Origin: an uncultured Candidatus Saccharibacteria bacterium
GTDB taxonomy: Bacteria; Patescibacteriota; Minisyncoccia; Phycocordibacterales; UBA9973
Reading direction: 5' to 3'
Assembly (NCBI GenBank): GCA_964532495.1
Contig: CAZHJZ010000003.1
Location: 67,747 to 131,746, forward strand
Length of the DNA: 64,000 nt
The position numbers were made by a program, and so were the translations under genes. Below, piece after piece: positions 7,935 to 37,495 of this stretch; within the stretch, counting starts at the first letter, position 1, and each line of letters starts with the position of its first letter. The notes under the pieces are model-generated. The model saw nothing but the letters and a program-made list of their open reading frames with translations. It was not told the DNA's origin and made no database searches.

Positions 7935-8693
7935 TTATTTCTCACTCTCCCACAATTTTTTAAATACTTCTCTCATGTTGTGCGCCAATACCGCATCATG
8001 AATTTCTACAAGATAGAACGGCCGCTGTCCGGTCACTACGAGAATAATATAATCTCCGCATATCCACTGTGTGCCGGTGAATTGATTCTCCCCTTTCCAA
8101 AATTTGATGAATCGCTTCTCCGCATATTTTCCTTCCATCATGTCTTCGGCGGCAGATTTGTTGCTGAAGAGTTTCAGTACCATTTCTTTCGGAGCGCGAT
8201 TCCATTCCCAATCAATAATGTGCTTGAAGTGTTCAACATACGTATGATCTTGAAAGCCCCAATATGTCAGGTCATGCATCTGCATGCTTTGATGCCATCG
8301 CGGAATAGCTTCGTACAGATACGATTCAAGATCTGCCTCGTCAACGAATCGGATTTTTGGAATTGAAAACGTTTTGGATTCTGGAATATTTTTGAGAACT
8401 TCTTGGAGTTCGTGGATGGAATTTTCTTTTTCTTTCAATACTTCGTGTTCACGCGAAATGATTTTCTCAAGTTCTTCTTGCCGCGCAGGCATGTAGTAGA
8501 GTACTTTGCCGCCAAGGTCTTCGACGATCAAGCCTTTTTCCTGCAATTCCTTCGCTACGCTATATACAGTTGTGCGATTGATCTTGGTCAGCCGAGAAAC
8601 TAGCGCTGGAGCGATCTTGCCCCGTTCAAGTATTAGTTTATAGATGATTTGCTCTTTATTACCGAGTCCAAGCTTCTCCAAGATTTTTTCCAT
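7935..8693 (-). CDS. TrmB-family transcriptional regulator (paralog 1)
   Basis: N-terminal wHTH GLGNKEQIIYKLILERGKIAPALVSRLTKINRTTVYSVAKELQEKGLI plus TrmB-type C-domain; paralog of 15262..16044. Confidence 0.7.
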   Translation of the reverse strand: MEKILEKLGLGNKEQIIYKLILERGKIAPALVSRLTKINRTTVYSVAKELQEKGLIVEDLGGKVLYYMPARQEELEKIISREHEVLKEKENSIHELQEVLKNIPESKTFSIPKIRFVDEADLESYLYEAIPRWHQSMQMHDLTYWGFQDHTYVEHFKHIIDWEWNRAPKEMVLKLFSNKSAAEDMMEGKYAEKRFIKFWKGENQFTGTQWICGDYIILVVTGQRPFYLVEIHDAVLAHNMREVFKKLWESEK

Positions 8694-10143: not shown

Positions 10144-11895
10144 ATGAATCAAAACTGTCAGGACTGTAAAAAAGAATTTGTGATTGATGCTGAAGACCAA
10201 TCATTTTACGAACGAATGAAAGTCCCCGCTCCGACATTTTGCCCATCATGCCGATGGAAGCGTCGCGCAGCGTATCGTAACGAAGGGAAACTATTTCGAG
10301 TACAGAATGCTTTCACTGGAGAAACTATTTTTTCATTGTTCCCGCCCGAAGCTGGATTGAAAGTCGTAACGCAGGAACAATGGTTCTCAGATTCATGGAA
10401 CGCCATGGACTACGGCCGCGACTATGATTTCTCCCGAAACTTTTTCGAGCAGCTGTTTGAGTTGTACAAAGACGTGCCTGTCTATAACCTGAACGTAAAG
10501 CAGATGATCAACAGCCCATACTCCGCTAACGCTTCATTTCAAAAGAACTGCTACCTTGTTTTTAATGCTAGTGAAAATGAAAATTGCATGTACGGCAATG
10601 GAGTGGATTTTTGTCGCGACTGCGTTGATGCCTCCTGCATCAATCATTGCGAACGGTGCTACGAAGGATTCTGGCTAGAGAATTGTTACAAGTGCCACTT
10701 CACCATCTTGAGCGTAGATTGCCAGAATGTCTTGTTCTCTCGCGACTGTCTGGGATGCACGGACTGCTTTGGCTGCACCAACCTCCGAAAGTCGTCTTAC
10801 TGTATTTTCAACCAGCAGTATTCCAAAGAGGAATATGAGGCCAAGATCGCAGAAATGCGGTTGGATACTCATGAAGGAGTAACTGCTGCTCGGCAGGCCG
10901 CCCGCGCCTTCTGGAAAACTCAGCCCAACAAATACCACCAAGGTCTCAAGAATGTGAACTCCACTGGTTCATATGTTTCACACTCCAAAAATGTCCGTGA
11001 CAGCTACCTTGTCCGAGAGAGTGAGAACATGCGCTACTGTCAGAACATGCTCGTTCCAGCCAACAAAGACTGCTACGATACTTCATTTTGGGGAGAAAAG
11101 ACGGAGTTGAACTATGAAACAAGCGTTTGTGGAGAGAACTCGTACAACCTGAAATTCTCATGGGACTGCTGGCCGAATGTGCGTGAAACTGAGTATTCAA
11201 TGCATTTGAAGTCTTCCTCCGACTGTTTTGGGTGTGTTGGCATGAAGAAAGCCCAGTACTGTATCTTGAACAAGCAGTACACCAAGGAAGAATACGAAAA
11301 ACTTGTTTCACGGATAAAGGAACAGATGAATGAGATGCCATATATCGGACATGATGGTTCCGTGTATCGCTATGGCGAGTTCTTCCCTATCGACCTTGTT
11401 CCGTTCGGCTACAACAATTCCCTGGCCCAAGAATATTTTGAGATCACTATAGAAGCCGCAGAGAGAAAAGGCTACCCTTGGATCGAAGTAGATCGCGGCG
11501 ACTATGCGATCACCCTAAAAGCATCCGAACTTCCCTCTTCTATAGATGAGGTGTCGGATACCATCCTCAAGGACATTATCGAATGTGAAACATGCGGTTA
11601 TGCCTTCCGTATCATGCCTGAAGAGCTGACATTCCTCCGCAAAGAAGACCTCCCGCTTCCCCGTTCGTGCAATAATTGCCGCCACAAGCAAAGATTGCTC
11701 GACCGACTTCCCGCAGATCTGCATGAAACACATTGTATGTGTGCTGGAGAAAAAGATGCCACAAATCAGTATCAAAACTCAGTTTCACACCCGCATGGAA
11801 GCGTGCCGTGCCGTGAAAGCTTTCAAACAGGATACTCACCGACCTCGGGGGCGATCGTGTACTGCGAAAGTTGCTATCAGCAAGAGACGGTTTAA
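10144..11895 (+). CDS. cysteine-rich protein with N- and C-terminal zinc-ribbon modules (paralog A)
   Basis: N-term CQDC-x24-CPSCRWKRR..RNE; C-term CETCG-x24-CNNCRHKQR; central run of ~9-12-residue Cys-pair repeats; no signal peptide. Confidence 0.6.
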   Translation: MNQNCQDCKKEFVIDAEDQSFYERMKVPAPTFCPSCRWKRRAAYRNEGKLFRVQNAFTGETIFSLFPPEAGLKVVTQEQWFSDSWNAMDYGRDYDFSRNFFEQLFELYKDVPVYNLNVKQMINSPYSANASFQKNCYLVFNASENENCMYGNGVDFCRDCVDASCINHCERCYEGFWLENCYKCHFTILSVDCQNVLFSRDCLGCTDCFGCTNLRKSSYCIFNQQYSKEEYEAKIAEMRLDTHEGVTAARQAARAFWKTQPNKYHQGLKNVNSTGSYVSHSKNVRDSYLVRESENMRYCQNMLVPANKDCYDTSFWGEKTELNYETSVCGENSYNLKFSWDCWPNVRETEYSMHLKSSSDCFGCVGMKKAQYCILNKQYTKEEYEKLVSRIKEQMNEMPYIGHDGSVYRYGEFFPIDLVPFGYNNSLAQEYFEITIEAAERKGYPWIEVDRGDYAITLKASELPSSIDEVSDTILKDIIECETCGYAFRIMPEELTFLRKEDLPLPRSCNNCRHKQRLLDRLPADLHETHCMCAGEKDATNQYQNSVSHPHGSVPCRESFQTGYSPTSGAIVYCESCYQQETV

Positions 11896-13189: not shown

Positions 13190-14869
13190 CTATTGAATTT
13201 CCTGCTGATAGCAAGGCTCGCAATATACCTGCTCTGTTCGTTCTGGTGCATAGCTTGTCTCAAATTGATTGGAGCAGCTGCCACCCTGGTGACCGATATG
13301 TTCTTTGATAGTGCACATGCATGATCGCTTCCAGAGTTCGCGCGGCGTTCGTTTTTCCATTCGAGCTTTGTGTCGGCACTCGAAATCTTTATGCGGGATC
13401 GGCAGATGCATTCTCTTGTAGAAGTCGAGTTCAGCTTTGATCAGACGATAATTTTTACCGCAATCACTGCAAGTAAAGATATCTTGTAGAATCGAATCAG
13501 CAACTCCCTCTATCGTTTTTGGCATATCCGCTTCTTTCATTGTTTCTTTGCCGAATGTACCAGTGTTTGATTCTCGCCAACTAAATCCTTGAGCGAGTGC
13601 TTGTTCCTTTTCCATTGGGAAAAAGTCATGAGCCAAAGTCTCGTTGTAGCCGAAAGGTGCGATATCCGGCGGGAAGAACTGACCATAATTTTTGTCAGTT
13701 TTAAGTTGGTCTTCAATGTTACTTCGCAGTTCAAGATAGTCTTCTTTTGAATATTCTTTATTCAAAATCATATATGACCCTTTTCTGACGGCAATACATC
13801 CAAGAGCGTTAGATAGGTGGTGGCAACTTTCACAATATTCAACTTCGTTGCAGTAAAAGACAAAAGCGGAATTTTTTAATCTGCTCCCCTCCAGCGCTCC
13901 CATGATGTTGTAACCGAAAGAAGGCTTGTAGTAGTAGTTGTTGCAATCCATGCTGTCGGTCGGGCTTTCGGTGTCAGTCATATACGAACAATTTTTTGCA
14001 TCGTATGTATCGTAGAGTAATACCCCATCATGACAGTTGTACAGATAATTCCCAGTAACGTTGTTGCACTTTACTTGTGAGGCGAATTTTCTTATAGCTT
14101 GGCTTTTCAATATCTCAAATTCTTTTTTTGCCTCCTCGATACTTTCAAAGCTTGAAAGTATTTCTTTCTTCTTCTTTTCAAATTCTTCCTTAGAATATTT
14201 TACATTAAGTATCGCATTGGATACATGTCTCCCATTTGTAGAGAAAATACAGTTCTGGCTGTCTCGCATGTTGTAACAAAAGAGAAGATCGCTTGAAGAT
14301 TGGCATTGTTCAGAAAACATGCAGTTAAAACACTGTCTGCAATCAATACACTCATAACACAATTCAGATTCATGTAGAAAGGCGCAATCTACGCATTGCT
14401 TGTCGCGCTGAAGCAATCTTCCGTAAAGACAATCTTCATTGTAATCTGCGGCAAAAATAAGATAGCAGTCTTTGTTTTCTGCCGAGCCGTTTGTGTAGTC
14501 GCTCCGAACATTATTAAAGGCCATAAGGCTTAGTCGAGGAACTTTCTGTTGCAAGCTTTTATATTGTTCAAAAAAAGGCTTAGTTAGATCATAGTCTACG
14601 CCATAATCTTTGGGATCCCATTTATCACTCCACCAGCACTCATGACAGTACACAGTATATGGCGAGCTTGGCGAATAAACAGAAATCATATCTTTCTTAC
14701 AAAGATCGCAGGGTCGTTTGTAGAAAGTTCGTTCATTTCTGAAAACCAGCCGTTGTTTCATTCGACAATCCGGACAGTGTATAGGTTCCGCGACTTTCAT
14801 TTGCGTATAAAAAACCTGATCTTCAGGACGGATTTCAAATTGTGCGCTGCAAGTTTTACAGGTGGTCAT
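13190..14869 (-). CDS. cysteine-rich protein with N- and C-terminal zinc-ribbon modules (paralog B)
   Basis: N-term CKTC-x24-CPDCRMKQR..RNE; C-term CSDCG-x~24-CRHKARM; same architecture and Cys-repeat core as 10144..11895. Confidence 0.6.
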   Translation of the reverse strand: MTTCKTCSAQFEIRPEDQVFYTQMKVAEPIHCPDCRMKQRLVFRNERTFYKRPCDLCKKDMISVYSPSSPYTVYCHECWWSDKWDPKDYGVDYDLTKPFFEQYKSLQQKVPRLSLMAFNNVRSDYTNGSAENKDCYLIFAADYNEDCLYGRLLQRDKQCVDCAFLHESELCYECIDCRQCFNCMFSEQCQSSSDLLFCYNMRDSQNCIFSTNGRHVSNAILNVKYSKEEFEKKKKEILSSFESIEEAKKEFEILKSQAIRKFASQVKCNNVTGNYLYNCHDGVLLYDTYDAKNCSYMTDTESPTDSMDCNNYYYKPSFGYNIMGALEGSRLKNSAFVFYCNEVEYCESCHHLSNALGCIAVRKGSYMILNKEYSKEDYLELRSNIEDQLKTDKNYGQFFPPDIAPFGYNETLAHDFFPMEKEQALAQGFSWRESNTGTFGKETMKEADMPKTIEGVADSILQDIFTCSDCGKNYRLIKAELDFYKRMHLPIPHKDFECRHKARMEKRTPRELWKRSCMCTIKEHIGHQGGSCSNQFETSYAPERTEQVYCEPCYQQEIQ

Positions 14870-15261: not shown

Positions 15262-16044
15262 ATGAAAAAAGACGATGTGAAACTCAAAAATGCCCTAGTT
15301 GAAATAGGTCTTTCTGATAAAGAAGCCGGAGTATATTTAGGGCTCCTGGAATTGGGTCGCGGCACTGTTTCTCAGATTTCTCGCAAAGCGAATATTAATC
15401 GTACAACCGGCTACGATATTTTGGATACATTAGCGCAAAAGGGTTTGGTGAGTATTTCTGGAAAAGAACCAAAACAAGAATATACTGCTGAGTCCCCCGA
15501 AAACTTGAGTACCTTTATCGCGCATGAAATCCAAACAAAGCATGAAGCACTTCGAAAAACAGAAAGCTTGATTCCTGAATTGAAATCTCTTCACAATGTA
15601 ACCGATAGACCCCGAGTAAGATTTTATGAAGGAATCGAAGGACTTACTCAGGTATATGAGGACACACTCACCTCTCATGAAACGATCCGCGCCTTTGCAA
15701 CAGTAGATGACATGCATGCCGCGCTGCCCAATTATTTTCCAAAATACTATAAGCGGCGAGCAAGTGCCGGCATTGAAATACGGGCGATCATACCTTCTAC
15801 TGAGATCGGAAAGGAACGTGCATTGCGTGATAAAGAGGAAGCTCGCGAAAGTGCTCTCGTGCCAGCGGATAAGTTTTACTTTTCTCCTGAGATCAACGTC
15901 TATGACAACAAAGTAATGATCGCTTCGTGGAGAGAAAAGCTCGGCATCATTATCGAATCAAGCGAGGTTGCCGATGCTATGAAAAAGATATACGAGCTTG
16001 CGTGGGCTGAAGCAAAACGACTCGATCGAGATATTCGACAATAA
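15262..16044 (+). CDS. TrmB-family transcriptional regulator (paralog 2)
   Basis: wHTH LSDKEAGVYLGLLELGRGTVSQISRKANINRTTGYDILDTLAQKGLV; same domain order as 7935..8693. Confidence 0.7.
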   Translation: MKKDDVKLKNALVEIGLSDKEAGVYLGLLELGRGTVSQISRKANINRTTGYDILDTLAQKGLVSISGKEPKQEYTAESPENLSTFIAHEIQTKHEALRKTESLIPELKSLHNVTDRPRVRFYEGIEGLTQVYEDTLTSHETIRAFATVDDMHAALPNYFPKYYKRRASAGIEIRAIIPSTEIGKERALRDKEEARESALVPADKFYFSPEINVYDNKVMIASWREKLGIIIESSEVADAMKKIYELAWAEAKRLDRDIRQ

Positions 16045-17114: not shown

Positions 17115-17609
17115 CTATTCTTTTGGCATTGGGTCCATTCCCGCCCACAAGTTCATTGTGTTGAGATGGGTCTGCCCCGTCATTTTCAAATACATGAAGA
17201 GCTGGAGCTTGTAAGCTGACGCCCATTTGATCGGGCCGTTCAAGAGGTGGAGCGCGCGAGTCTGCTTGCGTCCGAAGATTTCTACTTCTTCGTTGAGGTC
17301 ATCCTCTGACATTTCACCCACTACTTTTCTAAAATAATCCTCTTCTTTTTTCATGTGTTCGTTAAAGTTTTCAAGCGTCACTACGGACTGTTCATGTTTC
17401 CATTCTGTATCAGGAGTGCTTGTTCCCTGTTTGATGCTGTCTACTGCGTATCCGAATATTGTTGTAAGGAAATGCATGAGTTCGTGCATCGAGCGCTGTT
17501 TCGGGGTCGGTCGGAATTCGAATGTGTCAGCCTGCACTTTGCTTCCAAGATGGCGGATAACGTTAAATTCAAAACAGACTGAGTCGATATATTGTTGCTT
17601 AGTGATCAT
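17115..17609 (-). CDS. DinB/YfiT-like four-helix-bundle protein (putative)
   Basis: ~160 aa with spaced His residues (HLGSK, HELMHFL, HLLNGP) reminiscent of the DinB_2 family; weak. Confidence 0.3.
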   Translation of the reverse strand: MITKQQYIDSVCFEFNVIRHLGSKVQADTFEFRPTPKQRSMHELMHFLTTIFGYAVDSIKQGTSTPDTEWKHEQSVVTLENFNEHMKKEEDYFRKVVGEMSEDDLNEEVEIFGRKQTRALHLLNGPIKWASAYKLQLFMYLKMTGQTHLNTMNLWAGMDPMPKE

Positions 17610-18680: not shown

Positions 18681-20243
18681 TTATTTTACCCCGTGCTTGC
18701 CTCGGATTCTTGCTAGCTCTTCTTCTTCCGTTTCTTCCTTCGCTTTTTTGCCTTCCTCCCCTTTTGCTTTCAATTCGGCGTCGGTGAGGGTGTTCAATTC
18801 GAGTGTTCTCTTTTTCAAATATTCAATTTCATTTTTATCCGGATCTTCCAGTGATTCTTCGAGGAGAGTGTGGAGTATCCATCCCATGCGAGGGCCGGGG
18901 CGAATCCCAAGTTCTTTGATGAGCACTTCCCCATTGATCTTGAGCATGCCTACTGAAGTCGGTGCGCGCAATGCTTCCTCTATCATCGCATGGTATTTAC
19001 GGAGACGATATGGCGCTTCAACTTTCTTCATGCCCACACGGTCGCACTCGCGGATCTGCATCAATTCCCAAATATGTTCCCTGCCGATATTTACTATCGT
19101 TCGGCGGACCGCTGAAAGTGTGATTGCTTCTGTATCCGAGAAGAACATATGATAGCGGACAAGCTTCACTACGAGATCAGAAAGTTCGCGCGGATATTTC
19201 AATCGCTCCATAATCTTTGCTGCCATGCGGCCGCCCACTACTTCATGGCCATAAAATGTATATGCCTTTTTAGATCCAGGTCGTCGGGTTCGCGGCTTTC
19301 CTATGTCATGAAAGAGCGCGGCAAGCCTGATAGAGAGAGGCCAATCTTTTCCTGAAGCATGTCCCAGAGCTTGCAGTAGATGCTCGAACACATCATATAT
19401 ATGTACGCCTCCCTGCTCGCAGCCAATACCCTCACGAAGTTCGGGCACTATGTGTTCAAGCAATCCAAGCTTCTCCAATAGTCCCACTCCAATCATCGGA
19501 TCAGTAGATTCTATAATCTTCGTAAATTCATCACGTTTTCGTTCCCACGAAATATGTTTGAGAAGACCAGAGTTTTCCACAACCCCCTGCATCGTTTCTA
19601 CTGAGATGGCAAAACCTAATTGTGTGGAAAACCTTACCGCCCTCAACATGCGCAAGGCATCTTCTCTGAATCGTTCATCTGCGCTCCCTACTGTTACGAT
19701 GACTTTGTCCTTCAAGTCACGGACACCATTAAATTCATCTACAAGAAGTCCTTGAGATGGATTGTATGCCATAGCATTGACCGTAAAGTCACGTCTTTTT
19801 AAATCATCAAGTAAATTAAGGCTAAAAGACACATCATCAGGGTGCCGACTGTCACTATACCCTGCCTCTAACCTGTATGTTGTTATCTCTATGACCTTTA
19901 TCGTCTCATCGGTCTCCTCTTCGTTTACAATTGCTACTGTCCCAAAGATGTTTTCATAGACCGTTTTTGGATATAATGCTTGAATTTGAGCTGGAGTAGC
20001 GTTTGTTGTAATATCCCAGTCTTTGGGTTTTTTGTTCAGCAGAAGGTCTCGTACGCATCCACCGACGATGTATGCTTCGTATCCCGCACTTTCAAGTACG
20101 CCAAGTGTCGTTATGACTGATCCTGGTATTTGTTCTTTATTTATTGTGCCGTGGCCTTGGTTTTCCAATGTGACCATTAAATTGTGTGCGGGTAGGGAGA
20201 ATCGGACTCCCGTCTCATCCTTGGCAAGGACGTGTTCTACCAC
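18681..20243 (-). CDS. cca: CCA-adding tRNA nucleotidyltransferase with HD domain and Lys/Glu-rich C-terminal tail
   Basis: GGCVRDLLL..DWDITT polymerase-beta head motif; HDIGK HD domain; C-terminal KAKGEEGKKAKEETEEEE extension. Confidence 0.85.
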   Translation of the reverse strand: MVEHVLAKDETGVRFSLPAHNLMVTLENQGHGTINKEQIPGSVITTLGVLESAGYEAYIVGGCVRDLLLNKKPKDWDITTNATPAQIQALYPKTVYENIFGTVAIVNEEETDETIKVIEITTYRLEAGYSDSRHPDDVSFSLNLLDDLKRRDFTVNAMAYNPSQGLLVDEFNGVRDLKDKVIVTVGSADERFREDALRMLRAVRFSTQLGFAISVETMQGVVENSGLLKHISWERKRDEFTKIIESTDPMIGVGLLEKLGLLEHIVPELREGIGCEQGGVHIYDVFEHLLQALGHASGKDWPLSIRLAALFHDIGKPRTRRPGSKKAYTFYGHEVVGGRMAAKIMERLKYPRELSDLVVKLVRYHMFFSDTEAITLSAVRRTIVNIGREHIWELMQIRECDRVGMKKVEAPYRLRKYHAMIEEALRAPTSVGMLKINGEVLIKELGIRPGPRMGWILHTLLEESLEDPDKNEIEYLKKRTLELNTLTDAELKAKGEEGKKAKEETEEEELARIRGKHGVK

Positions 20244-20331
20244 TAAACCATACCCGCATAGTTATCTAGTAACGCGGATCATTATATACTGTGTTTCACA
20301 ATTTCGCAATTCGTGTATAATAGACCGGCAT

Positions 20332-20403
20332 GCACCCATGGTGAAATGGATATCACAACGGTCTTCGGAACCGTTATTGGGGGTTCGAATCCCTCTGGGT
20401 GCA
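20332..20403 (+). tRNA. tRNA-Arg (anticodon TCG)
   Basis: Cloverleaf: acceptor GCACCCA/TGGGTGC, anticodon stem ACGGT/ACCGT with loop CTTCGGA, T-arm GGGGG-TTCGAAT-CCCTC; CCA not encoded. Confidence 0.8.
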
Positions 20404-20451
20404 CATACATGAAAAAACCGCCTCCCGGGCGGTTTTTTCATGTATGTGCAC
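20399..20451 (+). terminator. 27-bp perfect hairpin overlapping the tRNA-Arg 3' end
   Basis: GTGCACATACATGAAAAAACCGCC-tcccg-GGCGGTTTTTTCATGTATGTGCAC; 22-nt arms (20399-20420/20430-20451) plus inner 5-bp GC stem. Confidence 0.7.
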
Positions 20452-20779
20452 CCAAGCTCGTTTGTCCCCTTCGGGACCGATGAGGCATCGCCTGCGCCTC
20501 TTGCGCGACCGAAAAGCACCCGCCACGGTAGCGGAGAATCCCTCTGCTGTCTTATTATATTATTTGACACTTCCCTGTCCCTTGTATAATTCTGTCAATG
20601 TCCTTTTAAAGTCCTTTTCCACATGATTTATCCTTGTATTTATTGGAAAATGGGGATAACCATGTGCATTATGTTGATAAGAGACACTAAATCTGTTGCC
20701 TAATTTGTACGTCTTTTATACATGATATCCTTATATACCAACGTATTTTACTTATTTTGACTAGAATATGGGTTTTCAA

Positions 20780-20979
20780 CTGTACATTCGTTTCACGTGA
20801 AACAGATTTAAAGTGTTACACATGAAACTTAAGATTAAGGACTCTAAGACATTTAAATACTAGATATCTAACAGATTGGGTAATACTGCAGGCTTAGGTT
20901 ATGTTTCATGTGTAACACTTAGATACATCTTTATTTAGTTTTTATATATATTTCATGCTGAATTGCTAGTATTTGTTTC
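20780..20979. promoter_or_regulatory. four operator-like inverted repeats GTTTCA-N2-TGAAAC upstream of yraN
   Basis: 20780-20793 GTTTCACGTGAAAC; 20805-20818 GTTACACATGAAAC; 20893-20906 GTTTCATGTGTAAC; 20964-20979 TGTTTCATATGAAACA; in a ~30% GC intergenic block. Confidence 0.5.
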
Positions 20980-21012
20980 ATATGAAACAGGTAAACGTAT
21001 TATATATAAGAT

Positions 21013-21423
21013 ATGCCTAGAGTTTTTACATCAAAAAGACAGAAGCTTGGCCAGCTAGGAGAGTCAATTGCTGTCACGTTCTTAAAAAATCATGGATTTC
21101 GCGTATTAGAAAGGAACTATACTCGCAAGTGGGGAGAATTAGATATTATTGCTGAAAAGGATCAAGAACTGCATTTTATTGAAGTTAAAGCTGTTTCACG
21201 TGAAAAAAATAGAATTAATACAAAGGATATAAGAGACCAATATAGGCCAGAAGAGAATATGCATCCTATAAAACTTCGCAAAATCTATCGGACAATACAA
21301 AGTTATCTAATAGACAGACATATACCAGACTCTATGGTCTGGCAAATTGATCTTGTGTGCGTATATCTTGATTCAGTCCGAAAGCAAGCAAAAGTTAAAA
21401 TTATAGAAAATATAGTCGGTTAG
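21013..21423 (+). CDS. yraN: YraN/UPF0102 family endonuclease-fold protein
   Basis: GQLGESIAVTFLKNHGFRVLERNYTRKWGELDIIA...LHFIEVKA matches the YraN signature. Confidence 0.75.
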   Translation: MPRVFTSKRQKLGQLGESIAVTFLKNHGFRVLERNYTRKWGELDIIAEKDQELHFIEVKAVSREKNRINTKDIRDQYRPEENMHPIKLRKIYRTIQSYLIDRHIPDSMVWQIDLVCVYLDSVRKQAKVKIIENIVG

Positions 21424-21608
21424 GGGATTGCAAGGAAGGCACTTCGGTTTCATGTAAAACGCCAGAAAATGAATATTTATGGCATGAGTCGGCCGCTGGT
21501 TTTATATAAGGATTACTAGTTGAGCGTAGTAACTGGCAATATCTCCAGCCATTTTTCGATATTTTCGTTGTAAAATTAAAAAAATATGCTACTATAGTCA
21601 CGTCGCAT

Positions 21609-21679
21609 CGGGGTGTAGTATATCGGTAGTATACTTGTTTTGGGAACAAGAGGGCCGAGTTCGATTCTCGGCACCCCGA
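21609..21679 (+). tRNA. tRNA-Pro (anticodon TGG)
   Basis: Acceptor CGGGGTG/CACCCCG, anticodon stem CTTGT/ACAAG with loop TTTGGGA, T-arm CCGAG-TTCGATT-CTCGG; D-arm pairing imperfect. Confidence 0.65.
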
Positions 21680-21687
21680 CAAAGAAT

Positions 21688-22153: not shown

Positions 22154-23155
22154 ATGGCAAAAAAGGCTGAAATGGGCAATTCTAAAAAAATGCCACATAC
22201 AATACACAGGAACAACAAGGAAATACACAAGGAAAGAGGGAAGATGATAATATGCAATTTTGATAAGCAATCCCCGCAAGAACTTCCGTTCACAAACGTT
22301 AGTGGAAAGATTGGCATCAAAATCGAATTGCGTTTAAAAACCAACGAAGAATTCTTCTTTTATTCCTGCGATAGTACCATCGATGACAGTGAAGATCTGT
22401 TCACCGCACCGGTTAGCAGCAGGAAAAACCTTCGTTTGGTATATATCACACTTGCTCTCCGCCCGTCGACCCCAGGCCGCGGTTCAAAGAATGCTTTCTA
22501 TCTTTCTGTTGTTAATTTTAAAACAGGAGAAGGGTATACCTACAAAGTTGGAGTAATGAACGTTACGCCGGAAATGTCGGATAAGCAAATTTCCTATTTT
22601 GTTAAATGCAAAATCACTCCGCATTATCTTTGGAACAAAGGCAGCAAAATGCCAGAGATAGAATCTTTCATTGATGTGCCGCTTGATCAATTCTTGTGCC
22701 GGATGGGAAACAAGAAAGAAAAGTTTGCAATGCTTCCACGCAAATATCGCAAGCTAAAATTTCCGTATCCTAAACGTCCTCGCACAGAGAACACTGCACG
22801 CAATGTGTTCTTTGATCCTTTCGAAGGAAAGGGTATTGCGCTTACGCATCAGGGACAGCTAGCAATGTATGGCATTGAGTATTTGGAAACTAAGTTCTCA
22901 ACTATTTTCCCAAAAGAAGGTGAGAACTTTAAAGATTTCTTTTCTGTACCGCTCTACGACGCTACAAACCGACTTATTACGCATGTGGCAGTACGTAGAA
23001 AAAGTTTCGATGAAATTAAGAAAAGAAAAAAGAAGTACAACTACCAGGCTTCATACAATGAAGAAAAACTTAACCAGCTGTTCGACATACAAAGCTTTTA
23101 CCAGATAGGCGAAACACAAGGAGCAATTGTGCTTAGTAATTTCCTCTCCGATTAG
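22154..23155 (+). CDS. hypothetical cytoplasmic protein
   Basis: 333-aa ORF without signal peptide or recognisable domain; start uncertain. Confidence 0.35.
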   Translation: MAKKAEMGNSKKMPHTIHRNNKEIHKERGKMIICNFDKQSPQELPFTNVSGKIGIKIELRLKTNEEFFFYSCDSTIDDSEDLFTAPVSSRKNLRLVYITLALRPSTPGRGSKNAFYLSVVNFKTGEGYTYKVGVMNVTPEMSDKQISYFVKCKITPHYLWNKGSKMPEIESFIDVPLDQFLCRMGNKKEKFAMLPRKYRKLKFPYPKRPRTENTARNVFFDPFEGKGIALTHQGQLAMYGIEYLETKFSTIFPKEGENFKDFFSVPLYDATNRLITHVAVRRKSFDEIKKRKKKYNYQASYNEEKLNQLFDIQSFYQIGETQGAIVLSNFLSD

Positions 23156-35815: not shown

Positions 35816-35928
35816 GCGCTACGTCATACATCCTTCAGAGGCAACGCCATAAAACTTAGAGAAGTTTTTGGCTCCTGCTCGCGCCGTCGCGCTCCGCAAG
35901 TGCCTCTAAAGGATGTATGACGTAGCGC
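35816..35928. repeat. inverted repeat / hairpin A (28-nt arms, 27/28 complementary, 57-nt loop)
   Basis: GCGCTACGTCATACATCCTTCAGAGGCA (35816-35843) vs TGCCTCTAAAGGATGTATGACGTAGCGC (35901-35928). Confidence 0.8.
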
Positions 35929-36013: not shown

Positions 36014-36120
36014 GCGCTTGCACTATGTGGCCTTGGAAGGGGCTTGCGGACTGCAGGAGCAGGAGCAAAAATCTCTCAAGATTTTATGCGTACCCTTCCA
36101 AGGCCACATAGTGCAAGCGC
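36014..36120. repeat. inverted repeat / hairpin B (28-nt perfect arms, 51-nt loop)
   Basis: GCGCTTGCACTATGTGGCCTTGGAAGGG (36014-36041) vs CCCTTCCAAGGCCACATAGTGCAAGCGC (36093-36120). Confidence 0.85.
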
Positions 36121-36185: not shown

Positions 36186-36203
36186 TTATCCACATTATCC
36201 ACT
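36186..36203 (+). promoter_or_regulatory. two tandem DnaA-box-like 9-mers
   Basis: TTATCCACA (perfect consensus, 36186-94) directly followed by TTATCCACT (36195-203). Confidence 0.4.
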
Positions 36204-36277: not shown

Positions 36278-37495
36278 ATGCAAAAATTTTTTACAAAAGA
36301 AATCATCCAAGCGCTCAAGGTCATCGTTCTCGGTCTTGTCCTTGGACTCGGTGTCTCAGTCGTTTCAGCTGACTGGGTTCAGCCATCAGCGCAAGCTCCT
36401 ACTTGTCAGAGCGGCAATCCTGGTTGTGACGCTCCTATCAACGTCTCTTCAAGCAATCAAAGTAAAGATGGACCAGCGTTGGCTTCAAAGTTCAACGTCT
36501 ATGGAATCTTTTCTGCTGATAAGGTTCTCGCATTTAATCAATTGTGGGTAAAGTCAAACACTGTTTCACCAATCAGCCCAACCGCAATTCAGTTTGGCGG
36601 ACGAGCAAACATTGATCTCAGCGATTGGAATCAAGACCCAGCAGTGAATGGTAATGCACGCGATGCTATTCAGATCACAGGTGGTCCTCGAGAGAATTCA
36701 GTTGGTATCATTACAAACAAGCCTCAATTTTACTTCTGGAATACTCCAGGTAATGGATACGCAACAGTGCAGGCAAAGAACATTCAGTTGACTGACGGAA
36801 CTCAAGGCGAAGGAAAAGCTTTGGTGTCAGACGCAAACGGACTTTCTTCATGGAAAGACATTACTCCACCGACACCAACAGTAACTGTCACAGGAGGTGA
36901 TATGGATGTTGTGATCATGGGACACAAGCGTAATGTCACAAACATGTCTGAGTTCAATACTGAAGCATACTGCCCAGCATCTCATCCTATCTTGCTCGGC
37001 GGAGGCGGCGACTGTCAAAGTCCAGCTGCAATAATACAGTCTCACCCAACATATCCTGGCAATGCTCGTCCTCGAACAGAGTATAACTACGATATCGAAA
37101 GTAATGAGCCAGCACAATCAGGATGGACAACAGTCTGCCGCATCCCATCAACTCCGAACGGTAAAGATGTGCACTCATGGGCAATTTGTGGAAAACTTAA
37201 CCCAGTAAGCGTAGTCTTGAATGCACCTGCAACTCCTACTCCAAACTGGGTTCCAGTTGGAAATGGTCCATTGCGAGGTCAAGATAACATAAGCTGTCTC
37301 GCATGGGTTCGTGGCTTGTATCCTACACATACTATCTCGGTAAATGATCTACGAGTAGGTACGCAAACAACTCTTGTTGGCAAATGCGGATACCTTCCAA
37401 TAGGAGGAGGAAACATCATTTATTATCCTGCAGATCAAGCTGTTACCGGAAAATATCCAGTTAACAATACTAACCTCCAGGTTAATCTCTACTAA
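36278..37495 (+). CDS. secreted hypothetical protein
   Basis: N-terminal TM/signal VIVLGLVLGLGVSVVSA; Gly/Asn/Thr-rich mature part. Confidence 0.45.
   Translation: MQKFFTKEIIQALKVIVLGLVLGLGVSVVSADWVQPSAQAPTCQSGNPGCDAPINVSSSNQSKDGPALASKFNVYGIFSADKVLAFNQLWVKSNTVSPISPTAIQFGGRANIDLSDWNQDPAVNGNARDAIQITGGPRENSVGIITNKPQFYFWNTPGNGYATVQAKNIQLTDGTQGEGKALVSDANGLSSWKDITPPTPTVTVTGGDMDVVIMGHKRNVTNMSEFNTEAYCPASHPILLGGGGDCQSPAAIIQSHPTYPGNARPRTEYNYDIESNEPAQSGWTTVCRIPSTPNGKDVHSWAICGKLNPVSVVLNAPATPTPNWVPVGNGPLRGQDNISCLAWVRGLYPTHTISVNDLRVGTQTTLVGKCGYLPIGGGNIIYYPADQAVTGKYPVNNTNLQVNLY

Follow-up and report, generated by a model that had tools for sequence, protein, structure and literature searches.

Palindromic sites surround the gene yraN in a 64-kb stretch of DNA from an uncultured Candidatus Saccharibacteria bacterium (contig CAZHJZ010000003.1, positions 67,747 to 131,746; the whole stretch is called here the window, and positions are counted within it). 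There are solid grounds for confidence that these palindromes are parS, the 16-bp centromere-like sites where dimers of ParB (Spo0J) load, and that the intergenic region in which they accumulate is probably the origin of replication or lies beside it. Since parS as such is already well known, the array is a new instance of a familiar element.

Sequence of the palindromes

The bases of the palindromes are those of the chromosomal parS, which is listed as TGTTNCACGTGAAACA for Bacillus subtilis and Corynebacterium glutamicum, as GTTTCACGTGAAAC for Mycobacterium smegmatis and as TGTTTCACGTGAAACA for Hyphomonas in the table of a review (PMC7022226). A sequence-only reading of this DNA had proposed either the operator array of a dimeric transcription factor or a partition element, and had stated that the motif matched no operator that could be named. 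The latter statement was wrong, the motif being the canonical parS centromere site with consensus TGTTNCACGTGAAACA, and the partition proposal was the one that held. Five of the 16-mers in the window match TGTTTCACGTGAAACA at 13-15 of the 16 positions and a further one does so at 12, and a search with this 16-mer allowing up to three mismatches found 5 sites in the window against 0.53 expected. With at most one mismatch to the 14-mer GTTTCANNTGAAAC the window contains 7 sites, when 0.41 would be expected and none of 100 shuffles reaches 7. The concentration is local: GTTTCA-NN-TGAAAC, with no more than one mismatch, is present in 6 copies within the 671 bp from 20790 to 21460 and in a single copy in the other 63 kb. 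Being identical in sequence to parS, the sites would be expected to bind ParB.

The parS palindrome has to be told apart from the related site of the protein Noc. Jalal et al. 2020 gave TGTTTCAC-GTGAAACA as the consensus parS and TATTTCCC-GGGAAATA as the Noc site, the two differing at two positions per half-site (PMC7383237). Base frequencies were obtained from 297 sites, pooled from the window and from the 80 related genome loci described below, with the central two bases and the flanks left free. At the two discriminating positions the pooled sites are of the parS type (G in 92%, A in 92%), and all six sites of the window carry this G and A in at least one half, most of them in both halves. 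Noc-binding sites (NBS), considered as a candidate identity, were rejected on account of these parS-type specificity bases. The central dinucleotide is a pyrimidine followed by a purine in 91% of the 297 sites (CG in 95, CA or TG in 125, TA in 51), and the flanking T...A of the 16-mer is enriched as well, with 53% against a background of about 30%.

Arrangement of the sites around yraN

Four of the sites precede yraN. The leftmost one, parS-1 (20789-20804, CGTTTCACGTGAAACA), agrees with the consensus at 15 of 16 positions; its 14-bp core, from 20790 to 20803, is a perfect palindrome, and the site is kept in the related loci L001, L003 and L004. It is followed by parS-2 (20814-20829, TGTTACACATGAAACT; 13/16), whose core GTTACACATGAAAC is the most frequent variant of the 14-mer in the related loci, accounting for 44 of the 297 sites, and by parS-3 (20902-20917, TGTTTCATGTGTAACA; 14/16), which is the parS-2 variant in reverse-complement orientation. 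The last one, parS-4 (20974-20989, TGTTTCATATGAAACA), is a perfect 16-bp palindrome in which a central TA replaces CG, and it ends 24 bp upstream of the yraN ATG. The four inverted repeats that the sequence-only reading had placed upstream of yraN are all there as 16-mers, with true starts some 9-10 nt to the right of the positions quoted for them, and its two perfect palindromes are the core of parS-1 and the whole of parS-4. A sixth copy had been overlooked: parS-5 (21192-21207, TGTTTCACGTGAAAAA; 15/16) lies inside the yraN coding sequence, where it encodes V-S-R-E-K immediately after the catalytic E-V-K motif. The half-conserved fifth copy of that reading is also present, as a weak parS-like site at 21446-21461 (GGTTTCATGTAAAACG), 24 bp past the yraN stop codon; it matches 12 of 16 positions, its 14-mer core has one mismatch, and L001 has none at the homologous place.

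Together parS-2 and parS-3 form a 22-nt inverted pair (20811-20832 and 20899-20920) whose arms are 95% complementary and separated by 66 nt. Such a pair resembles terminal inverted repeats, so the relic of a mobile element, namely a miniature inverted-repeat transposable element, was weighed along with a chance cluster in AT-rich DNA. The arms are themselves a parS variant and no transposase accompanies them, seven sites are present where chance would give 0.41, and over 180 loci from different species retain the cluster in the corresponding place. The probability of either explanation is practically nil.

Distribution of the sites in related loci

Two sets of loci were compared with the window. 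The first one comprises 80 related genome loci, found through the protein sequence of the CCA-adding enzyme encoded beside the array (52-84% identity). Relatives of this enzyme were met only in metagenome-assembled genomes (MAGs) labelled Paceibacteria, Nomurabacteria or Patescibacteria, some of them under the generic label 'Saccharibacteria'; the source of the window belongs to the Paceibacteria (CPR). The second one comprises 105 metagenome loci retrieved solely by the pattern of the DnaA-box core described in the next section, with no selection for yraN, the CCA enzyme or parS. The parS-like motif recurs in nearly all of the 80 genome loci and in the metagenome loci. The sequence-only reading had asked whether the motif might be absent from orthologous loci, and the opposite was found, the motif being present in essentially all those examined.

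The sites are confined to a zone that extends from about -2500 to +1200 around the DnaA-box core, a span of approximately 3.7 kb which includes yraN, tRNAs and the CCA-enzyme gene. In the 35 complete loci, that is, those with both flanks, the zone contains 160 sites, or 1.24 per kb, and the remaining 371 kb contain 2, or 0.005 per kb. No locus has fewer than 2 sites; the median is 4 and the highest count 13. The metagenome loci give the same picture, since 315 of their 319 parS-like sites are located within the same zone; yraN is found in 101 of these loci and the CCA enzyme in 75.

Many of the copies in the relatives are written into genes. In yraN, the loop after E-V-K encodes VSRE(T/K), VSCVT, VSCET or VSYET from DNA resembling GTTTCA-YR-TGAAAC, and in some lineages the site is displaced five codons further along, as VTRET; the embedded copies occupy yraN codons about 60-66. 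The CCA-enzyme gene of the relatives (L005-L080) has about eight recurrent parS places, mostly in one frame and encoding V-S/T-x-E-T. The resulting peptides, for example VSHET, VTHET, VSYET, FSRET and VSCVT, are often found in variable loops, several of them in a variable insertion. The CCA-enzyme gene of the window has lost its parS copies, as illustrated by ISVETM, encoded by ATCTCAGTAGAAAC with three mismatches. In the window and its closest relatives, L001, L003 and L004, this gene is free of copies, and an enlarged intergenic block carries four or five instead. The highest number is reached in L061, with 13 parS-like sites in 900 bp (1961-2875): ten of them form a non-coding array of about 500 bp after yraN, with spacings of approximately 26-112 bp, and one overlaps the yraN start codon (CAT-ATG-AAAC). 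Hence, the cluster as a whole is maintained although its parS copies shift between coding and non-coding DNA, a behaviour that fits selection on the DNA sequence itself.

This distribution bears directly on the other proposal of the sequence-only reading, according to which the palindromes would be the operators of a dimeric transcription factor acting on yraN or on a wider regulon. Four palindromes do precede yraN within 225 bp of its start, the closest being 24 bp from the ATG, and in some relatives a site overlaps the start codon. However, the motif is identical to parS, copies are found within yraN and at many places of the CCA-enzyme gene in relatives, the ten-copy array of L061 lies downstream of yraN, and both the number and the position of the sites change among close relatives. 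Operators set at positions relative to a promoter cannot account for copies that reside in coding DNA and turn over. A regulon would in addition require sites elsewhere, and the related sequence examined, 371 kb plus 637 kb, has essentially none outside the single 3.7-kb zone. The operator proposal does not stand, and it is considered highly improbable for yraN alone as well as for a regulon.

DnaA boxes and the question of the origin

The first four parS sites occupy the right part of an AT-rich non-coding block (20560-21012). Its GC content, estimated at about 30% in the sequence-only reading, was measured as 29.8%, against 43.2% for the window, and no other stretch of equal length in the 64 kb is poorer in GC (lowest 0.06% of 453-bp windows). 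The block is a candidate DNA-unwinding region of an origin. No open reading frame (ORF) of at least 40 amino acids lies inside the block, and the ORFs that touch it only reach its left edge from the GC-rich flank. A scan of 18-24 kb against Rfam (E<=1) returned four tRNAs and chance-level matches, none of them in the block, and a scan of the block for consensus promoters and terminators gave chance-level results.

The left part of the block holds three DnaA boxes, each with at most one mismatch to the reference consensus TTATCCACA. Box A (20615-20623, plus strand, TTTTCCACA; one mismatch) faces box B (20651-20659, minus strand, TGGGGATAA on the top strand; one mismatch) over a 27-nt AT-rich spacer, and box C (20672-20680, minus strand, TGTTGATAA on the top strand; one mismatch) follows 12 nt after box B. 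The three boxes fall within 66 bp, in an element spanning 20596-20687, about 130 bp to the left of the parS array. This proximity of the array to a conserved trio of DnaA boxes, in the most AT-rich DNA of the window, is the reason why the region is regarded as probably the origin or directly beside it.

The trio is part of a conserved non-coding element with the form TGTGGATAA - 12 nt - TGTTNATAA - AAGACA, which was found in 44 of 81 sequences (the window and the 80 genome loci). Among these 44 loci, box B is exactly TGTGGATAA in 35 and departs from it by one mismatch in the remaining 9. Box C has one or two mismatches in nearly all relatives and is followed by the conserved AAGACA, which is GAGACA in the window. 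A recognisable box A (TTATACACA or TTTTCCACA), facing box B, is present in 35 loci, and in 24 of these it stands 24-27 nt before box B; the fixed geometry is box A, 26 or 27 nt, box B, 12 nt, box C. Exact DnaA boxes number 52 in 569 kb of related loci, and 37 of them are at the core; composition alone would give about 7 in total. The CCA-enzyme gene of the window contains two further DnaA-box-like 9-mers, at 19573 and 19623.

Conservation of the left half of the block (20596-20722) could also be that of a small RNA gene, in which case there would be no DnaA boxes and the parS array would be unrelated to an origin. A sigma-70-like promoter (TTGACA at 20565, TATAAT at 20585) that the window shares with L001 and L003, together with a possible hairpin and T-run at 20680-20722, would suit such a gene. 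Nevertheless, RNAalifold on 28 core sequences predicted 0 consensus base pairs and there is no Rfam match; therefore what is conserved is the primary sequence, as expected for a duplex site bound by protein. Moreover, in most relatives a tRNA gene stops about 20 nt short of the element, too close for a promoter to fit in between, and the invariant letters are exactly the 9-mers of the DnaA boxes. The small RNA was rejected on the lack of predicted pairing, and is deemed very unlikely.

Strand composition was examined through the GC skew at third codon positions (GC3 skew). In the window, the cumulative top-strand GC3 skew falls from 0 to 20 kb, bottoms out at about 27 kb and then climbs as far as 61 kb. 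Across loci, genes on the plus strand to the right of the core exceed those on the minus strand in GC3 skew by 0.15-0.22 (p<1e-6), and to the left of the core the difference is absent or slightly reversed. The left-hand result was counted in favour of an origin, because the same positive difference would be predicted on both sides if no switch took place. The divergent orientation of the flanking genes, with the CCA-enzyme gene running leftwards and yraN rightwards, was counted in its favour too, as was the fact that parS is usually located near the origin.

Several observations speak against placing the origin here. The GC3-skew minimum does not coincide with the boxes at 20.6 kb but lies 6 kb away from them, at about 27 kb, a shift attributable to the negative GC3 skew of the ORF 22154-23155 and of the next few genes; the skew of the left flank is weak, and not significant once the CCA-enzyme gene is excluded; and gene orientation to the left of the core is mixed. 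No consistent (NAN)n array of DnaA-trios was seen beside the boxes when the alignment was read by eye. The window, which reaches 20 kb to one side of the locus and 43 kb to the other, contains neither dnaA nor dnaN, nor do the flanks of the related loci, and a work on Patescibacteria takes dnaA as the marker of the origin (PMC12102498). Finally, the window has a second, tandem pair of DnaA boxes at 36186-36203.

This second pair consists of TTATCCACA and TTATCCACT, one exact and one with one mismatch, located about 75 bp upstream of the ORF 36278-37495 (405 amino acids, no Pfam family), and it could be either a DnaA-regulated promoter or a second cluster of DnaA boxes. The same intergenic region, between nusA and the ORF at 36278, contains two GC-rich inverted repeats with 28-nt arms (35816-35928 and 36014-36120), the arms being 96% and 100% complementary and 57 and 51 nt apart, respectively; they may be structured RNA, a terminator or a repeat element. 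A similar GC-rich, hairpin-rich stretch (20400-20559, 55.5% GC) follows the tRNA-Arg gene beside the AT-rich block.

Taking both sides together, it is about as likely as not that oriC lies at the locus or no more than a few kb from it. A more comprehensive proposal, to which slightly less than an even chance is given, is that the origin of Paceibacteria is the tRNA-yraN intergenic region, fused to the centromere and unlinked from dnaA. It would consist of the three-box module, AT-rich DNA and a parS cluster whose members have been repeatedly written into the neighbouring genes as V-S/T-x-E-T, with their count remaining roughly constant.

Presumed partner proteins and proposed mechanism

The partners of such a centromere were sought with motif regular expressions and tblastn on the window and the 185 loci, and with Pfam scans of about 60 ORFs of the window; a cognate ParB would have a helix-turn-helix plus the GERRxRA CTP-binding motif. 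Some results weigh against identifying the array as parS. The searches detected no gene for ParB, ParA/Soj or DnaA, either in the 64-kb window or in about 1.5 Mb of related sequence made up of the 80 genome and the 105 metagenome loci. Protein searches with Spo0J and a consensus ParB, not restricted to the lineage, gave ParBs of the Bacillus/Firmicutes type only. In addition, four of the six sites of the window differ from the consensus at 2-4 positions. A ParB is assumed to exist in the Paceibacteria lineage. The literature on parS, ParB or oriC in Patescibacteria or Parcubacteria yielded nothing specific, with the single exception of one paper that places dnaA and dnaN near virB4 in Paceibacteria.

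The lack of ParB and ParA genes in these searches leads to consider that a paralogue of the ParB family, or another protein, binds the sites in a role other than segregation, be it Noc-like nucleoid occlusion, silencing, or purely SMC loading without ParA; a ParB without ParA is indeed known from Streptococcus pneumoniae (PMC7022226). The NBS of Firmicutes are related 16-bp palindromes bound by a paralogue of ParB (PMC7383237). Unlike them, the sites described here have G and A, not A and C, at the two specificity positions, and they form a single tight cluster, whereas Noc sites are scattered over the chromosome. A role of this kind appears unlikely.

If the sites are the parS that their sequence indicates, the route from site to function would be that of model species. 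A review describes the CTP-dependent loading of ParB clamps at parS, their sliding, the recruitment of SMC and the benefit of having several origin-proximal parS, and parS is usually origin-proximal (PMC7022226). By analogy, ParB-CTP dimers would bind each parS, close into clamps and slide outwards onto the flanking DNA. From four loading sites within 200 bp, joined by two others within 500 bp, a single dense partition complex would arise, and this complex would mark the origin-proximal DNA for segregation, with ParA if it is present, and for the loading of SMC (condensin).

Comparison with known systems

The parS clusters of C. glutamicum, Myxococcus xanthus and Caulobacter crescentus span several kb to tens of kb and are located near parAB. 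These species have several parS (10, 22 and 5, respectively), all of them in the origin domain and acting as one centromere (PMC7022226). In the window, by contrast, the cluster is densest in a non-coding block of 200 bp fused to a group of DnaA boxes, and in the relatives copies are embedded in the yraN and CCA-enzyme genes. The 16-bp palindrome is the same in B. subtilis, where natural copies also deviate by a few bases, some of them lie in coding sequences, and parS are the loading sites of the CTP-dependent Spo0J/ParB clamp and of SMC (PMC7022226). The differences concern the arrangement, since 8 of the 10 sites listed for B. subtilis belong to the origin domain (PMC7022226), and here six sites are gathered in 671 bp; the central CG, which here is often TA or CA/TG; and the neighbourhood, in which no parAB operon is found.

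The DnaA-box element may likewise be compared with bacterial oriC provided with a basal unwinding system (BUS). Both have a strong DnaA box with a weaker tandem one, a further facing box and adjacent AT-rich DNA. Unlike in the BUS, no array of DnaA-trios was found by eye, dnaA and dnaN are not adjacent, and the evidence from skew is only moderately supportive.

Genomic neighbourhood

The window contains the housekeeping genes for S12, S7, NusA, trigger factor, ClpP, PGK, TIM, RecJ and RNase Y, and is therefore chromosomal. The AT-rich block lies, as the sequence-only reading had it, between two tRNA genes: tRNA-Arg(TCG) (20332-20404, plus strand), which bounds the intergenic region on the left, and tRNA-Pro (21609-21680), given by the tRNA scan to the right of yraN. 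A perfect 23-bp hairpin (20400-20450) comes directly after tRNA-Arg and is followed by a GC-rich stretch. The identity of yraN (21013-21423, plus strand) was confirmed by matches to Pfam UPF0102 and to the NCBIfam YraN family; its product is a predicted PD-(D/E)xK nuclease, and the gene is a constant neighbour of the DnaA-box core and the parS cluster. The CCA-adding enzyme gene (18681-20177, minus strand), without parS in the window copy, is divergent from yraN, and tRNA-Gly(GCC) (20186-20257) runs leftwards as well. The longest ORF of the CCA enzyme starts with a GTG at 20243 and overlaps this tRNA gene on the same strand; the true start is probably the ATG at 20177.

Other genes nearby were noted. 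A lysine-rich ORF of 333 amino acids (22154-23155) belongs to no Pfam or NCBIfam family and lacks homologues in all of the 80 related loci; it has the look of an insertion specific to this lineage, beside the centromere region. A protein of 164 amino acids (17115-17609), with no match in Pfam or NCBIfam, adjoins the CCA-enzyme gene at 42-64% identity in more than 12 of the 80 genome loci and was found in 2 of the 105 metagenome loci. Farther to the left there are two paralogous pairs (7935-8693, 10144-11895, 13190-14869 and 15262-16044), each made up of a TrmB-family helix-turn-helix protein (about 255 amino acids) and a large protein of 559-583 amino acids whose N-terminal part is a treble-clef zinc finger (zf_Tbcl). 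Many relatives have homologues of both close to the yraN-CCA locus, in some cases as duplicates. A scan of the neighbouring hypothetical proteins against NCBIfam assigned no family.

Significance

The element itself is a textbook one and its nature would not surprise a specialist. What is added is a lineage-wide module of DnaA boxes and parS at yraN and the CCA-enzyme gene, together with parS copies embedded in coding sequences, where the site is retained at the expense of the encoded peptide. The module provides a sequence-level landmark for the centromere, and probably for the origin, in a large uncultivated class of bacteria in which dnaA now serves as the origin marker. The DnaA-box core with a parS cluster by yraN and the CCA-enzyme gene is simple to search for and could be used to orient and circularise MAGs. 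Moreover, the same landmark could calibrate growth-rate estimates based on coverage and guide the choice of sites for genetic tools in these organisms.

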